A DNA stretch of 62,594 nucleotides, the filler included. It is 11 parts of 11 records of this genome, joined end to end, with 100 filler letters (N's around TTAATTAATTAA, not from the genome) between each part and the next. Parts side by side here need not be neighbours in the genome. Positions count along the whole stretch, not along the records: positions 45,543 to 52,205 come from SRR31156797_79601; 10 more parts are not named here. One strand, given 5' to 3'. The notes below the pieces were generated by a model. It did no database searches. It saw only the letters and a program-made list of their open reading frames with translations, and was not told the DNA's origin. The stretch's first letter is position 1. Each line of letters begins with the position of its first letter. The position numbers and the translations under genes were made by a program. Below, one piece after another: positions 45,443-52,305 of the stretch.

Positions 45443-45542
45443 NNNNNNNNNNNNNNNNNNNNNNNNNNNNNNNNNNNNNNNNNNNNTTAATTAATTAANN
45501 NNNNNNNNNNNNNNNNNNNNNNNNNNNNNNNNNNNNNNNNNN

Positions 45543-46308
45543 CCCCACATTCCAGTTTTTTTAAATACTTTTCTACGACAGACGTTATGAATCCTTCCTC
45601 CCGGATCTGTTTGAGAGCCGCTCTTGCCTTTTCTACCAACACATCCGCAGTCTGTTTGCTGAACGCCGAATAAAATCCTTCCCGATCTGTCCATAAAACA
45701 AAGGTCTTTTCCAACTGATCATAGGAAAAACCGGCTGATTTGACCTTAAGGGGAAGCGTCAGTTCCGTCCATACGATCAAGTCAATCCGTCCAAAAAACA
45801 GTTTCTTGAGATTCAGGATCTCTTTGGGGACAACTTCCATGTTCCGGCCTTCCACAAACCCTTGCCCCAGAAGGTATTGATGCATTGAATCGCCTTTTAT
45901 TACTCCGATCGTATACTGCCTGGCATCGTCTAAGGAATGAATTTCAATATCTTTTCTTTCTTTCAATTTATACAAATAGCTGTTTGAAGACGGAGTAATC
46001 GGTCCAACCCACTTATAATGGTTCTCCCGTTCAGGGATTCGTCTAAGGGTATAAATCAATACGTTCTTCTTTGTCTTCGCCATGTTTACTGCCCGCGCCC
46101 AAGGATAAACGACAAAATCCGCCTCAATTTCCGCCCTGTTCAGCATTGCTTCCACAATTTCTTTTGAGATGCCCGTAATCTTCCCGTTTTCGCTATAGTT
46201 ATAGGGGGGCCATTCATAGGTTACCGCCAAAATACCCGCAGCATTGGCGCAGCTTGTCCACAAGAAAAACATGAGAAGCAACAATGCTGCCTGTTTATTC
46301 ATGATCAT
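45543..46308 (-). CDS. Amino-acid-type (family 3) extracellular substrate-binding protein; stop codon lost at contig end
   Basis: Signal peptide; WPPYNY, YPWARA, PERE..YKWVGP and GRIDL. Confidence 0.85.
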
Positions 46309-46533
46309 TCCTCCGTAACGTTCGTATTATTTCTATCGCGCTATGGGGCTTCAACCGTTCGAGATATTATGAATTAACAACACCTTATGGATAGAGCACA
46401 CATTTCCCACCACTAAAAAAACAATTCGAAAAACAGGGCCGTATTAAAGGCATAATACCTCGATAGCATTTCAAAATCAACCGATTCCCCCTTTACTGTT
46501 GTAACATCGGCCTCCGATTGCTTTTTGCTCTTT

Positions 46534-47883
46534 TCATGTATGACGGTCATGGTTTTTCCCGGGCACAAGCTCCCACACAGGGCTTGTCACCGCCTTATGA
46601 ACCTCGCTTGCGAAATTTTTCATTCCAATGAATCCGGCAAGGGGTGTTTTCCGGTCATGGTTGAAATCACAGAATCCGATCCCCATCTTGCCGGCGACGG
46701 CCCGTTCTTTTCCCCCGCCCACGAAAAGCTCGGCCTCCGTTTCAACGATATATTTGGCAAGGGCAAGGGGCTTGGCATCATCCAGGATAACCGTGCCCTT
46801 GGCACAGCTTTTCTTGAGGATTCCATAATCCGCAGAACGACCTGACTGAATCCCCACAAAAACAACATCCATGCCCAGGAACCCCAGTGCCTTGATCATG
46901 GAAACGGTCCTGGAGGTGTCCCCCACGCAGATACCGGCCTTTTTCCCCTTGAGATCTTTTTTCATATCCATGAGCGCGGGTAAGATCGCCCGGACTTCGT
47001 TACGCACCAGGCTCTCCGTGCGCTTCATGATCGAATGGTTGTGAGAAAAAAATCCGGCAACATTATAAAGGGCATCGGACATGTCATCCAGGCCAAAACA
47101 GGAGACCCGGATGTAGGGAATGCCGTACGCCTGCTCCATCTTTTGGGCAAGGTAAAGCATGGCGCCGGAGCATAGAACCACATTGAGGGAGGCCTTGTGG
47201 GCGGCCTGGATCTCCGCCACCCCGCCCTCCCCGGTCATCACCGATACCACCTGGATCCCGATTTTCCTGTAATACTCCCTGATGATCCACGCCTCACCGC
47301 CCATGTTGAACTCCCCCAGAATGTTGATGCTCTCCCTTTCCACCTCTTTGCCGCGGTTTTGCCCGATCAATTGGAACAATGCCTTGCAGCCGGCCATTCC
47401 GGCGTCCTTCCCCCCTCCGGAATAGACGGGAAGAACGGGGATATTTACTTTGGCCGCCACCTTCCGGCACACGACATCCACATCGTCGCCAATGATACCG
47501 ACGATGCAGGTGGGGTAAACAAAGGCCGCACCGGGAGAGTAAAGATCGATCAGTTCCACCAGGGCGTTGTATAACTTTTCCTCTCCCCCATTAATGATGT
47601 CCGTCCCGGTCAGGTCTGTAGAAAACCCCATCCGATGGAGTTCAGGTCCCGGGGAGAGGCCCCCCCGGATCTCCCTGGTGCAGGCGGTACAGCCCATGGG
47701 CCCGTGGACAAGGTGGAGGGCGTCGGCAATGGGATACAGGACTGCCTGGGCTCCGCAAACCACACAGGCACGACGCCCCATGGTGCCGGCATCACGCCCC
47801 TGGCCGCAGTCCTTCTCATTTGCGTCTGTTCCTTTGCGCCGTCCCTGTTTCTTTCCCCCTTTATATTTGGGTCTCCTATCCAT
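46534..47883 (-). CDS. nifE: NifE-like nitrogenase cofactor scaffold subunit (divergent, no adjacent nifN)
   Basis: RACVVCG..AVLYPIADALHLVHGP.GC, FSTDL, TCIVGIIGDD, NILGEFN.GGE, VLCSG and DFNHDRK...AGF.GM.NFA.EV; ATG at 47883 with GGGGGA RBS. Confidence 0.85.
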   Translation of the reverse strand: MDRRPKYKGGKKQGRRKGTDANEKDCGQGRDAGTMGRRACVVCGAQAVLYPIADALHLVHGPMGCTACTREIRGGLSPGPELHRMGFSTDLTGTDIINGGEEKLYNALVELIDLYSPGAAFVYPTCIVGIIGDDVDVVCRKVAAKVNIPVLPVYSGGGKDAGMAGCKALFQLIGQNRGKEVERESINILGEFNMGGEAWIIREYYRKIGIQVVSVMTGEGGVAEIQAAHKASLNVVLCSGAMLYLAQKMEQAYGIPYIRVSCFGLDDMSDALYNVAGFFSHNHSIMKRTESLVRNEVRAILPALMDMKKDLKGKKAGICVGDTSRTVSMIKALGFLGMDVVFVGIQSGRSADYGILKKSCAKGTVILDDAKPLALAKYIVETEAELFVGGGKERAVAGKMGIGFCDFNHDRKTPLAGFIGMKNFASEVHKAVTSPVWELVPGKNHDRHT

Positions 47884-48245
47884 CGTTCCCCCCGAGATTA
47901 TGGATTTGCCGATTCCGCCTTTTGGGTCATCCGCTTTTTTACAACTGCGGAATACTATCGCAAAGAACGTTCCAGGGAGATCCCCAAAAGAGTGAAAGAT
48001 CATACCTGCCTGATATTAAAGATTATCTTCCCAGACCATCTCGCAAAAAGGGAGTTAAATGGAAGGGGAGTTAATGGCAAAACTTACAATTATAGATTTT
48101 CATCGTCGAAATAATACATTTTTGTCATGCAACACAATATTAACAACACATATGTATCGCATCCCCAAAGACAGTCCAACCAGACAGAGAACCTGGAAAA
48201 AAAGAAAAAGTATCATGGGGGGAAGAGAATCCCCCCATTTTCGGG

Positions 48246-50420
48246 TTAAAATTGGTACTTCAGCATTGCGGTAATCACCCTGCCGGGATTATAGCTTGCA
48301 AGATCATAGGGAACCCCATCGACACTGTCCGTGCCCTGGGAGGCCTCGGTGTGCTCATCGTCGAAAATGTTCTCCACGGACAGGGAAGCGGTGAAACCGG
48401 GACCAAAGGATTTCCATAATTTGATATCAGCGGTAACATAGCTGTCCGCCGCTTTGTTGTCACTGTTCACATCATCCAGGTACTGCTCGTCTTTCCACCG
48501 GAGGCTGAGCTTTGAATTGACGATCCTGTTTTCCCACACGGCCGACAGGTTGACCATCTGGGCAGGGGAAGAGCGCAGCTCCTTTCCGGTCAGGTCCGTT
48601 GCCCCGGTAAAATCGGGCTTTTCATACTCTTTTATCTCTGTGTCCGAAAAGGTATAATCGGCCTTGAACCGGATCTGATCCGTCAAGCTGTATTGGGCGG
48701 TGAGCTCGATGCCATGGATCTCCACCTCCCCCACGTTCTGCTTGATTTTATAGGTCCTGGTCGCCCAATAGCCGCTGGAGGCGACAGGAATGCCCGTATC
48801 CACATAGTAAAGAAAATCCTTTCCAAGGGAGTAAAAGGCCGAGCCGGACAGGGTCAGCCCCTTCATGGGCGTATAGCTGGCTCCCAGCTCAAAGGTGTCG
48901 ATGGTTTCAGGCTTCAGATCCGGGTTGGCAATCTTGGGCCCGACATACTGCCAGCCAGTCCGGCACAAATCGTCAAGCTCGGGGGCGCGGAATCCCCTGG
49001 AGTATGAGCCATAGGCATTGAAATTGTCGCTGAAATGATATTTTCCCGAAATTCTCGGGCTTAAGTTATCCCAGTTTTCATCCTTTATGGGGTTACCGTC
49101 CACATAAGCGGCAAACAGGTGTCCCGGGTGGGTCGAGGTCTTGCAGTCAACGGTTTCAACATAGTCATACCTGAGTCCCAGGGAAAGGGTGAGCCGGTCA
49201 TCCAAGAAGGTCAGCCGGTCATCCAGGTAAAGGGCGTAGAACCGCATATCCCCGCTGTTCTTTATGAACCCGCCGTCCTTGTCAATATCCTGGGCATCGA
49301 CCCCGCCCTGCTTGATATCCGCGCCGATCCCGACCCTGTTCCATTGGGCTATAAAGGGAGAGGAATAGTGCAGGATCACCCCCATATCACTGCGATCGGA
49401 GTCCACATCGGTATCTGTTTTTCCGATGCGATCATAAAGCTTGTAATACTCCTCCAGCTGGTAGTAGAGCCGCGTCTCCCACTTTTTATCCGCAAGCCCG
49501 CCGCTGTAGGTGAGATTGGCCCGGCGGTTCTTGAAATGACGGTACTCCCCGTCGCCACGGTCGTCCCCTTTGCCCCCTTCGCCCCGCTCATCATAGTAAT
49601 AGGAGCAATCCAGCTTCAGATGATTCAATTCATTGAAATCATACCCCAGCTGGGGCGAGATGGACCACTCATCCAGATACAGGGGCATGATCTCATATCC
49701 GTCATCGGTCTTTTTCTTCCGGGTGAAGTCTGACGCCGATTCCCATCCGTCCGATTCCCGGTACATCCCGGCAAGGCCGAAGTTCAATCCCCTGTCCGGA
49801 TCTTTCCTGGCGGCCAGGTTGAACCGGCCACCCCAGGTATCATGGGTGCCCGCCTCGGCGGACACAGCCCCTGAAAAGGGCTCGGTTGCCCGTCTTGAAA
49901 TGATATTGATCACACCGCCCATGGCGTTGCTGCCATACACCGAAGACCCCGGCCCCTTGAACACCTCGATCCGTTCCACCGTATCCGGGTTGATGCTGTT
50001 CCAGTTCACGCCCCCGGAGTCTGTCTTGTTGATGGGGATGCCGTCCATCAGCACCAGGGTTCGGCCCTGCTCAAAGCTGCCAAGCCCCCGCATACCAACC
50101 ACGGTTCGCATCTGGCTTACGCCGGTGCGGTTGGAGGTCACACCGGCAACGTCCCTGAGGACAGTATCCAGGGTTGCCCCGGCCATGTTTTCAATATCCT
50201 GCCGTGTTATGATCTCGATCTTCGCGGCAACCGCGTCCTTTTTTTCAGGCACCCTGCTGGCGGTAATCACAACATCATCCAGGGAAAAGGATTCACCGGC
50301 AAAGGCGTCGGCTGCCCAAATATTAAGCACCAGCGCCGTCACACAAAAGAGAACCCGAACCGGGTCAAAACAACCGATTGCCATGGTTTTACATCTCCGT
50401 ATCTGCATCATATTTTCCAT
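48246..50420 (-). CDS. TonB-dependent outer membrane receptor
   Basis: DDVVITASR, plug LVLMDGIP, VERIEVFKGPGSSVYGSNAMGGVINII, NPDLKPE, ENIFD and terminal YQF. Confidence 0.95.
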   Translation of the reverse strand: MENMMQIRRCKTMAIGCFDPVRVLFCVTALVLNIWAADAFAGESFSLDDVVITASRVPEKKDAVAAKIEIITRQDIENMAGATLDTVLRDVAGVTSNRTGVSQMRTVVGMRGLGSFEQGRTLVLMDGIPINKTDSGGVNWNSINPDTVERIEVFKGPGSSVYGSNAMGGVINIISRRATEPFSGAVSAEAGTHDTWGGRFNLAARKDPDRGLNFGLAGMYRESDGWESASDFTRKKKTDDGYEIMPLYLDEWSISPQLGYDFNELNHLKLDCSYYYDERGEGGKGDDRGDGEYRHFKNRRANLTYSGGLADKKWETRLYYQLEEYYKLYDRIGKTDTDVDSDRSDMGVILHYSSPFIAQWNRVGIGADIKQGGVDAQDIDKDGGFIKNSGDMRFYALYLDDRLTFLDDRLTLSLGLRYDYVETVDCKTSTHPGHLFAAYVDGNPIKDENWDNLSPRISGKYHFSDNFNAYGSYSRGFRAPELDDLCRTGWQYVGPKIANPDLKPETIDTFELGASYTPMKGLTLSGSAFYSLGKDFLYYVDTGIPVASSGYWATRTYKIKQNVGEVEIHGIELTAQYSLTDQIRFKADYTFSDTEIKEYEKPDFTGATDLTGKELRSSPAQMVNLSAVWENRIVNSKLSLRWKDEQYLDDVNSDNKAADSYVTADIKLWKSFGPGFTASLSVENIFDDEHTEASQGTDSVDGVPYDLASYNPGRVITAMLKYQF

Positions 50421-50424
50421 ATTC

Positions 50425-51432
50425 TTAGTTCAGGGGGGTGGAAAGACCGACCACTTCATAGGGATTGGAACCTGCGGTGATCATCTCTTGCGCCATTTTT
50501 CCGGTGACCGGTAACTCTTTGGCAACGGTCACAAACCGCTGGGGTTCGTCAAGGTAGTCCACCAGGGCAAACACAAGGGCGGCCTTAGGACTATCCTTTG
50601 GCGCAAGCTTTCGCATCTTGTCAAAGTCAAAGGAAAAGGCAACGCATTTGCCCGCCCCGGTTTTCGTGTCCGTAATCAACAGCATGCCGGCCGGTTTTTC
50701 CACGGAGATTCTCTCCTTCTGGGCCTGGCTGAGCTTTTTCACGATCATCCCCCGCTTGCCCGGGGTCAGATCCAGAACCACCTGGAACGCATCCTCCTTG
50801 CACCAGATGGGAGAAGAAATCATGGTGTATCGCTCCCCCTGTTTCAAGGGATATCGATCGAGGATCATCCGGGCGATCAGGTAGCCCGAGCTCACACCGG
50901 GGCAGAGGTGATTATGAAGCTCCGCACACTTGAGGTAGTCATAAGGTGCGCCAAGGGCCCAGGAGCCGGCAATGGTGGCAATGGTAAAGAAATCGGATTG
51001 ACAGGTCAGCCCCTCCGTCTCCTTCCAGAACGCCTTGCCGGAGAGGTTTGACTGGGAGAGTTCCAGCCGCTCCGTTACAAAACCGTCCTTTTTCATGGTC
51101 ATGACCACGGCCTCCCCGGTGCTCCCCCGGAAAAGGGTGATGCTGAGGGGATAGAACTGGGCCCGCTGGAAAAAAAGCAGGTTCTGGTTGCCGACGGTAC
51201 AGCCGGTCAGTTCCTGGATGGGTTTCAGGTAATCGATTCCCGGCCGGCCGTTGCTCCGCACATAGGGCGCATTGGTCAGGCATAGAAGATCGGTGCTCCC
51301 CTTCACAGTCGACAGGTCTGTCATGGCCTGGGCGATCATCCGGTTGAACCGGGCATCCTCGGCCCCTGCCGGGCCTATGGCAACAAGGGTAAGAACAATC
51401 ATTGCAACAACATGTTTGAACATTGGCTTCAT
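50425..51432 (-). CDS. Exported FmdE-family (formylmethanofuran dehydrogenase subunit E-like) protein
   Basis: Signal peptide; HNHLCPGVSSG, WCKEDAFQ and TPGKRG. Confidence 0.8.
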   Translation of the reverse strand: MKPMFKHVVAMIVLTLVAIGPAGAEDARFNRMIAQAMTDLSTVKGSTDLLCLTNAPYVRSNGRPGIDYLKPIQELTGCTVGNQNLLFFQRAQFYPLSITLFRGSTGEAVVMTMKKDGFVTERLELSQSNLSGKAFWKETEGLTCQSDFFTIATIAGSWALGAPYDYLKCAELHNHLCPGVSSGYLIARMILDRYPLKQGERYTMISSPIWCKEDAFQVVLDLTPGKRGMIVKKLSQAQKERISVEKPAGMLLITDTKTGAGKCVAFSFDFDKMRKLAPKDSPKAALVFALVDYLDEPQRFVTVAKELPVTGKMAQEMITAGSNPYEVVGLSTPLN

Positions 51433-51458
51433 CTCTATTCAACTCCTTTATCTGCGGT

Positions 51459-51494
51459 AAAAAAAAACGGGAGCGCCGGACCCCGTGGCGCCCC
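51459..51494 (-). terminator. Intrinsic terminator-like hairpin inside the putative operon
   Basis: Minus strand GGGGCGCC-N9-GGCGCTCC-CG-TTTTTTTTT. Confidence 0.6.
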
Positions 51495-51512
51495 ATATCA
51501 TCACCTGTTTTA

Positions 51513-52121
51513 TCAACGATTCGAGGTCTTGGTGATGGGATCAACGCCGGTTGGGAACATGGCGGCAAAGGGTTCAAATCCCTGTGTTTCCCGGACCGTG
51601 CAGAAGTGCATCCCCTTTTTGCTGCCGGTCATCATCAGGGGGGCGGCCCGCTCCACATCCAGGTGATACGCCGCGTCAATGGCGTCGTCGTCCACCTCAA
51701 GATGCAACACCTTTCCCACCACAAGGCTGTAGGAAGCCTCCTTGTACTCCTTCACAAGGGAGCACTCCATCCAGGCGTAGCACCCCATGATGCCGGGGGC
51801 CTTGATGGTGGCGGAGGGTTTTTCTTCAAGCCCTGCCACCTCAAACTCGTCCACCTCGGGACCGGTCATCCGTGCCGTGGGAATGACGCTCTTCTCCATG
51901 GCCGCCCCGGCAAGGTTGATGACGAACTCCTTGGTTTCCCGGATGTTGGCCAGGGTGTCCCGCTTTTCGGCACTGGCAAAGGTGATGAGATCCAGGGGTC
52001 TCAGCACCGGCATGATGCACGAATAGGGGGCGATGTTTCGAACGCCGTCGACGCTCACGGTTGAAATGAATGTCACGGGAAGGGGCATGATCCCTTCCCT
52101 CATGAAGGGTTTGAGTATCAT
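51513..52121 (-). CDS. Flavin reductase-like (flavoredoxin/DIM6/NTAB) protein
   Basis: [34 protein letters not shown] and WMEC; AAGGAG RBS before the ATG at 52121. Confidence 0.88.
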
Positions 52122-52305
52122 AATGGTTCTCCTTATGTTGCGGGGCCGTAAAAACCGCCCCGATGTTTTACATTCCGTCAATAAGCTAATAAGCTAGGCC
52201 TGACCNNNNNNNNNNNNNNNNNNNNNNNNNNNNNNNNNNNNNNNNNNNNTTAATTAATTAANNNNNNNNNNNNNNNNNNNNNNNNNNNNNNNNNNNNNNN
52301 NNNNN

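Follow-up and report, generated by a model that had tools for sequence, protein, structure and literature searches.

A lone, diverged nifE-derived gene behind a nifH-type promoter in a probable member of the Desulfobacteraceae, with traces of nif operon collapse and relaxed selection

The nitrogenase component-1 fold serves outside nitrogen fixation in CfbD, DPOR/COR, MarDK and other Group IV proteins, of which CfbD works as a single gene product. To our knowledge, such repurposed folds are known only as old, finished clades. Within nitrogen fixation, it is reported that all three Cys ligands of the O-cluster come from NifE, with NifN supplying hydrogen bonds in that structure (PMC13031127), and that in A. 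vinelandii NifE Cys25 is the receiving and Cys250 an essential residue (PMC13128457). In addition, nifE without nifN is found in thermophilic group III/C diazotrophs (PMC3464626, PMC3760896, PMC13474568), NifX holds NifB-co without converting it (PMC13128457), and in the engineered A. vinelandii strain DJ1041 the nifH promoter was joined by deletion to nifENX (PMC13128457). Our literature search, which covered few subscription papers, found no report of a lone, collapsed-operon nifE.

The gene described here, a nifE-derived open reading frame (ORF) in a metagenome contig, compares with each of these systems in part. With Desulfobacterales NifE, the FeMo-cofactor maturase alpha subunit (TIGR01283), it shares descent, fold and ligands of the A. 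vinelandii Cys25/37/62/124/250 type, but it differs in having no nifN, no EGF loop and no F/Y98, a rewritten YVGGAFKAF loop, a basic N-terminal arm and a long branch. As in the group III/C diazotrophs, nifE stands without nifN; however, those organisms have a distinct-group nifHDK, whereas the present ORF derives recently from an ordinary NifE of the always nifN-paired kind and has lost its nif neighbors. As in DJ1041, DNA between the nifH promoter and nifE would have been deleted so that the nifH promoter drives nifE, though here the locus is natural and old, nifN is also lost and the protein has diverged heavily. The Group IV/V proteins form deep, conserved clades with a NifH-like reductase of their own, whereas the ORF is a shallow offshoot with no NifH-like reductase gene alongside it on the 6.7-kb contig. 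Any likeness to NifX/NafY would be one of functional analogy only, in a putative holding of NifB-co without conversion, the fold of those proteins being unrelated to that of the ORF.

The window, that is, the whole stretch of 62,594 nucleotides that was analyzed, consists of 11 unrelated contigs (5.0-6.7 kb, 28-62% G+C) joined by N spacers, the 12-base cores of which make false ORF ends, for example at 45487 for the solute-binding protein ORF. The ORF sits inside the contig at 45543-52205 (6,663 bp, 53% G+C), which carries five genes, all on the minus strand, in the following order:

52181-51513, minus strand: flavin-reductase-like gene, a neighbor
51432-50425, minus strand: FmdE-domain gene, a neighbor
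50420-48246, minus strand: TonB-dependent receptor gene, the neighbor upstream of the ORF
46534..47883, minus strand: NifE-derived ORF of 449 aa, with Cys26, 40, 43, 65, 126 and 238 and Asn408 kept and with altered cluster-lining and docking loops
45543..46308, minus strand: family-3 solute-binding protein (SBP_bac_3) gene, downstream of the ORF, cut at the contig edge and not shared with the ortholog's locus

This arrangement agrees with the sequence-only reading, which had described an intact NifE-like ORF between a TonB receptor and a substrate-binding protein. That the join is an assembly chimera was considered and rejected: in the run that we call X1, probably the source of this DNA, a 19,656-bp contig at a depth of 95.8 carries the whole stretch with 0 differences, and record 17 of a second run, X3, repeats the join of TonB and nifE-like gene. 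Among relatives with a taxon name, those nearest to the FmdE protein come from MAGs of Desulfobacteraceae (92%) and Desulfobacterium (85%), and the host is therefore most likely a member of the Desulfobacteraceae. At E 1e-30 this 335-aa protein finds 248 relatives; where these carry a name, it is mostly one of Desulfobacterales. The flavin-reductase-like, FmdE and TonB genes form a compact unit (48246-52181), probably for uptake of a metal or cofactor. The solute-binding protein gene and its flank (45543-46533) have 43% G+C and a GC3 of 0.50, compared with a GC3 of 0.67-0.75 in the other genes, which suggests that this gene may have arrived separately. At the other end of the contig, 52010-52205, summed contig depth is very high (2405 in X1, 195 in X3), as would be expected of a repeated element, for instance a REP or an IS end.

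The frame of the ORF is open over all 449 codons (47883 to 46534), with no internal stop. Its profile scores are 500.8 bits for TIGR01283 nifE, just short of the equivalog cut-off of 505.1, against 263.8 for nifD, 69.9 for BchB and 29.7 for CfbD. Among 5.8 billion proteins, the closest are ordinary Desulfobacterales NifE of at most 65% identity (P0001, 65%). In a FastTree phylogeny rooted on 6 NifD and comprising 115 sequences (among them the query, 66 of the 120 hits and alternate NifE from the related loci), the ORF falls within a clade of 7 that includes NifE labelled Desulfamplus, with a support of 0.98 for the clade and 0.34 for the exact sister, and its terminal branch of 0.685 is 6-8 times longer than those of its sisters (0.08 and 0.12 for the neighbors). 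This phylogeny, of NifE and NifD only, bears out descent from NifE, and CfbD and BchB are set apart by their HMM scores.

Comparison with the 120 best hits shows where the protein departs from its relatives. A column was taken as conserved if kept in at least 95% of these hits, and of 257 such columns 59 are changed or deleted in the ORF; no hit has more than 7 such departures, and the median among the hits is 1. All of the cysteine motifs named beforehand (C26, C40, C65, C126, C238) are nevertheless in place and, in total, 10 of 10 conserved cysteines are kept, among them C43, which is invariant in the 120 nearest relatives; N408 is kept as well. C40, C65 and C126 align with the O-cluster ligands Cys37/62/124 of A. 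vinelandii NifE, and C26 and C238 with Cys25 (receiving) and Cys250 (internal, essential). The three segments previously described as altered are altered as described. One difference is in a loop:

47389..47424, minus strand: remodelled loop, residues 154-165, in which 4 residues net are lost in frame, the conserved EGF among them; Tyr and Lys are also gone

The lost Tyr and Lys correspond to N164/R165 of A. vinelandii NifE, the residue roles being taken from PMC13128457. The EGF loop is missing in only 6 of 190 relatives, and by eye those 6 look frameshifted or misaligned. Residue 98, which is Phe or Tyr in 120 of 120 relatives, is Asn in the ORF. Two of the lost or changed aromatics we take to be the equivalents of the NifH-docking alpha-Phe125 and alpha-Phe186, a docking role on which our literature search found no paper. 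The YVGGAFKAF loop is rewritten, with 9 changes within residues 317-329, and T347, V391, Y398, H407 and E410 are further changed conserved positions. Some changes, at A45 and Q46, match the A. vinelandii NifE residues. In addition, a new C68 creates a second CxxC (65-68), and the N-terminal arm has a net charge of +6, compared with -3 to +4 in relatives. Loss of the NifH-docking aromatics and of the pocket loops has probably ended any activity as a FeMo-cofactor maturase, and the earlier description of a divergent NifE copy without nifN that is probably not a working maturase stands.

A structure model of the ORF from 108 sequences has the NifE fold (pLDDT 84.5, TM ~0.84-0.88 to NifEN chains), although such a model mostly mirrors the alignment of the relatives and is no proof that the ORF sequence itself folds; an earlier model from 22 sequences was poor (pLDDT 65). 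The prediction of a homodimer with 4Fe-4S scored 0.08 against a mark of 0.42 and was counted neither for nor against any reading. In composition, the ORF has 57 glycines, compared with 37-47 in the 120 relatives, and Tyr has become Cys at three conserved positions (68, 262 and 319). Where a conserved site has changed by a single step, the new base on the coding strand is G in about half of the cases. Adenine-directed hypermutation was rejected as their source, changes to G arising from A, T and C about equally.

The orphan state of the gene is unusual among its relatives. The best 80 of 510 confirmed metagenome loci were inspected for nifN, and 9 of the 80 ended too soon; in the 71 with room downstream, nifN follows nifE in 69 and is fused to it in 2 (71/71). 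Apart from a 23-bp nifH scrap, the 6.7-kb contig has no second nif gene beside the ORF, and the absence of nifN to which the sequence-only reading drew attention is borne out. The fused NifEN genes, 2 among the 80 loci, are at L043:7780-10545 and L045:10001-12814. Some of the related loci show other variations. A gene for a ~155-aa protein, acetyltransferase-like by eye, lies just before nifE at L033:672-1130, L037:2736-3215 and L041:4042-4506; L037 has, in addition, a NifB-like ORF in the interval from nifK to nifE, and in L036 these two genes are ~6.4 kb apart.

The 362 bp upstream of the ORF carry the traces of its origin and contain the following elements:

47884..47900, minus strand: spacer made up of TAA and the next 14 nt, which include a ribosome site rich in G, apparently resembling the old nifK-stop/nifE spacer
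47901..47923, minus strand: 23-bp scrap of the nifH 5' end with Walker-A codons KGGIGKS, in frame with the ORF and marking the deletion junction
47960..47974, minus strand: sigma-54 promoter motif of the -24/-12 type, upstream of the nifH Lys codon by 52 nt
48115..48131, minus strand: NtrC-like palindrome, ~150 nt upstream of the promoter, a weak lead only
48215..48238, minus strand: terminator-like hairpin that ends the TonB unit and parts TonB from the nif remnant

The scrap matches the start of nifH in 26 of 87 loci (blastn; best 23/23, E 4.5e-5), and its KGGIGKS codon pattern occurs a single time across the whole window. In several related loci the nifK stop is followed after ~6-23 nt by the nifE ATG. 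A sigma-54 motif of this kind stands before nifH in 26 of 38 loci when the pattern is relaxed and in 14 of 38 when it is strict. Across the window, sigma-54 matches are at chance level (2 found, 4 expected), and the chance of a match in this spacer and on this strand is ~1%. The distance from the motif to the nifH Lys codon is 52 nt here, compared with 74-176 nt in relatives, and therefore the nifH ribosome site and first codons are missing. No NifA TGT-N10-ACA site was found at the locus. The NtrC-like palindrome has a shuffle probability of 0.02, yet it stands before only 1 of 36 nifH genes (1.1 expected) and so is not enriched. The hairpin (48238-48215) has a predicted energy of -18.5 kcal/mol (z -3.2). 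No terminator-like site was found on the minus strand from the ORF to the solute-binding protein gene, which has sigma-70-like sites of its own.

As the nifH scrap, the sigma-54 motif and the nifK-like spacer stand directly upstream of the ORF, a history of operon collapse for the lone nifE is well supported by the sequence. A nifH-D-K-E-N operon, probably with nifI1/I2, would have stood behind the TonB-FmdE genes in a lineage of Desulfobacteraceae. A deletion of ~4.7 kb that began at nifH codon ~15 and took in the remainder of the operon as far as the nifK end, together with the loss of nifN and what followed it, would then have left nifE alone under the nifH sigma-54 promoter. In most related loci the nifH Lys codon and nifE are about 4.6-4.9 kb apart. 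The sequence-only reading missed both the nifH promoter and the nifH scrap, which reveal this collapse.

To compare the locus with relatives we used four runs, X1-X4, of which X3 and X4 represent one independent salt-marsh sample (S3). In X3 record 17, TonB (137 differences over 1,462 bp) is joined to the 5' end of the nifE-like gene, in a stretch that also has the nifH scrap (57 differences over 349 bp). X3 record 16 holds the 3' end of the ORF (65 differences over 441 bp), with similarity ending at the last base of the stop codon, and X4 record 24 crosses the deleted loop with a net length difference of 0 (36 differences over 231 bp). A 50-nt promoter-bearing piece (47935-47984) is common to X3 and X4, its flanks being unalignable. 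The S3 ortholog and the ORF have in common the promoter-bearing piece, the deletion junction and the shortened loop. Net indels in the three S3 pieces are 0, +3 and 0, from summary counts that would not reveal stops. Had the S3 stretches come from even the closest of the 120 canonical NifE, non-synonymous differences alone would number at least 70, 53 and 36, against the 65 differences of all kinds in record 16; because this leaves little or no room for synonymous differences, the S3 pieces represent the diverged form and not a canonical nifE. X3 record 17 also has ~48 bases more than the window between 48080 and 47923, roughly what the nifH ribosome site and start, missing from the window, would take up, and from the coordinates (window 47885-48003) the ortholog may encode a short NifH-NifE fusion.

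The relative in X2 lacks the remnant at this place. Although a gap in coverage proves nothing by itself, X2 record 11 carries the TonB-FmdE-reductase genes at 92.6% identity on an 11.5-kb contig that runs across the place, with unlike DNA just past the terminator, and X2 is slightly closer to X1 than X3 is. The proposed TonB-FmdE-nifE synteny accordingly holds for TonB and the nifE-like gene in two of three lineages and fails in X2. A second X1 contig, of 22,045 bp and depth 90.2, has a nifE piece of 83% identity that shows 29 differences, where 12-13 non-synonymous ones are needed for the sister clade; on depth alone, it is a candidate for the canonical nifE copy of the same genome. No further copy of the diverged form was found in 5.8 billion proteins, 1.84 billion representatives (best full-length match 51%), a genome set (a scan with the single protein gave 7 archaeal loci only, at 29-40%) or viral contigs. 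The best 80 of the 510 confirmed loci in the metagenome scan (at least 600 stretches) are all at or below 60%, and orthologs beyond those listed are possible there. A search for short proteins covered 137 of 164 candidates, and none of the 120 listed resembles the diverged form.

We next consider selection on the ORF. Against a stand-in ancestor built from six sister proteins, 135 of 422 positions have changed (32% amino-acid change). The changes fell in 55 of 253 conserved versus 80 of 169 variable columns (P 5e-8), and part of them predates the collapse. In neutral simulations to 32% change, a mean of 6.4 stops arose and 0.1% of runs had none (P 0.001, with the whole branch neutral); under a cautious model in which only the conserved-column changes are neutral, 1.5-10% of runs had none, frameshifts not being counted. 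The changes are also clustered, the longest unchanged run being 34 conserved sites (P 0.004-0.01). Cluster-lining and docking segments, which were defined from NifD residues after the alignment had been seen and were checked for correspondence against a NifD, have 29 of 78 conserved positions changed, compared with 18 of 159 in the rest (P 8e-6) and 8 of 16 in the N-terminal arm. Loops show no enrichment over helices or strands (25/106, 22/101 and 8/46), and therefore the clustering follows region. Of 57 positions with Cys, Gly or Pro, 3 have changed (P <0.001 to 0.07, depending on the mutation model); none of the 10 with Cys has (P 0.05-0.07). The exchanges themselves are no more conservative than neutral (BLOSUM P 0.09-0.17), and a test of aliphatic-to-polar changes was likewise neutral-like.

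Between the orthologs, DNA identity is 84-85% for the nifE-like gene versus 91% for TonB. A rough dN/dS of 0.31-0.67 follows from summary counts, with the three pieces assumed to be of one organism and a TonB dN/dS assumed at 0.1-0.25; the listed X2 differences comprise 12 synonymous and 7 non-synonymous codons. Collectively, this rough estimate argues that selection on the ORF has been and is still relaxed, neither absent nor re-tightened. With no stops or frameshifts, uneven changes and a dN/dS of roughly 0.31-0.67, the ORF does not look like a pseudogene. Decay of a duplicate, which the sequence-only reading had offered as one explanation, is thus disfavored in its neutral form, as the frame is open, the changes are clustered and scaffold and cysteines are kept; nor was its combination of dN/dS near 1 with no syntenic ortholog found, the ortholog in S3 being syntenic. 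As judged from its sequence, the ORF appears to be neither a working NifE (no partner gene, altered pocket and docking loops, a score below the cut-off) nor a member of the nitrogen-fixation-like clades, nor a pseudogene.

The explanation that we prefer, and to which we give roughly even credence, is that the product has a weakly useful, passive role beside a canonical NifEN, as a cluster sink or buffer or as a decoy for NifN. The ORF would probably still be switched on with the nitrogen-starvation regulon. Its product would be a folded three-domain protein that holds a [4Fe-4S] on its own cysteines 40, 65 and 126, perhaps also 43, and it may hold NifB-co on Cys26 or Cys238. Little would be under selection beyond an open frame, the scaffold and, probably, the cysteines. 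The likeliest job would be passive, as an Fe-S/NifB-co sink or buffer or as a decoy subunit that modulates a canonical NifEN encoded elsewhere, and the benefit would be small, at least one relative having lost the gene. Several findings sit uneasily with this proposal. The orthologs diverge fast, where a firm new function should have brought conservation back; X2, though slightly closer to X1 than X3 is, shows nothing similar at the site; no further copy turned up in the protein, representative, genome or viral sets or among the metagenome matches listed; loss of the pocket with a kept core is also expected from selection against misfolding alone; and the exchanges are no more conservative than neutral.

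These same observations favor the strongest rival, a slow decay without useful function, which we regard as unlikely on balance while taking it seriously. Here the gene would be expressed from the nifH promoter, with stops, frameshifts and core-destabilizing changes purged for the cost of misfolding, and lineages would escape by deletion. The strong continuing divergence of the orthologs, the absence of the gene in X2 and of any wider family found, the erosion of functional loops around a kept core, exchanges as radical as neutral ones and the excess of glycines would all follow. Yet a useless expressed gene is easily lost by promoter mutation or deletion, whereas promoter, junction and open frame have outlasted ~0.2-0.3 synonymous divergence between two lineages and 32% amino-acid change. 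Moreover, all six ligand-type cysteines are kept within the most eroded segments (about P 0.05), which also speaks against such decay. Somewhat more doubtful is a bolder version of function, in which the ORF would encode a natural NifN- and NifH-independent single-subunit Fe-S protein of recent NifE origin, expressed from the nifH promoter, with a [4Fe-4S] on its own cysteines (CxxC 40/43, the new CxxC 65/68 and C126) and a basic arm, and acting as a NifB-co holder or decoy regulator.

Improbable is a neofunctionalized metallocluster scaffold or enzyme partnered with the TonB-FmdE-flavin reductase uptake genes or the solute-binding protein, the other explanation that the sequence-only reading had put forward. 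The kept cysteines and the new CxxC at 65-68 are compatible with it, as are the synteny of TonB and nifE-like gene in two lineages and the precedent of repurposed nitrogenase folds (PMC13474568). The link to uptake genes is not supported, however, as the hairpin parts TonB from the gene, the sigma-54 promoter is inherited from nifH, X2 has TonB-FmdE without the gene and X3, with other DNA downstream, does not share the solute-binding protein gene there. Furthermore, near the nif genes of 87 loci there are 0 homologs of the FmdE, flavin-reductase or solute-binding proteins and one weak TonB hit, and the contig offers no reductase partner. Repurposing by a burst of change followed by strong conservation is itself weakened, as the poorly conserved orthologs outpace TonB in divergence.

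It is very improbable that the organism has no nifE but this one, still at work, and that nifN and the other nif genes have moved elsewhere. All known cluster ligands are kept, the score is near the nifE cut-off, a nif promoter is in place, A45 and Q46 equal A. vinelandii residues and NifE without NifN exists in the thermophilic group III/C diazotrophs (PMC3464626, PMC13474568); set against this are the 59 departures versus at most 7 in working relatives, the lost EGF loop, Asn in place of an aromatic at residue 98 and a candidate canonical copy at similar depth in X1. Equally hard to credit is promoter capture, in which nitrogen-controlled transcription of downstream genes such as an amino-acid-type solute-binding protein is selected and the ORF stays open only to avoid polarity: the two genes share a strand with no terminator-like site between them and the promoter is conserved, but X1 and X3 differ downstream, the solute-binding protein gene has its own sigma-70-like sites and such capture would not preserve scaffold and cysteines.

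If the gene is only decaying, it serves as a caution, since at less than 5 bits from the nifE cut-off metagenome surveys would take it for a nitrogen-fixation gene. More broadly, the locus keeps a deletion scar, an inherited promoter and a young, long branch and so shows a maturase subunit soon after the loss of its partner. If the ORF product binds a cluster alone, it would test whether NifN is needed for NifE to fold and to hold Fe-S or NifB-co, and would bear on models of a single-gene nitrogenase ancestor and on minimal nif engineering. Should the single-subunit Fe-S reading be true, the gene would represent an early, datable stage of the kind of repurposing that lies behind CfbD- and Mar-like enzymes.
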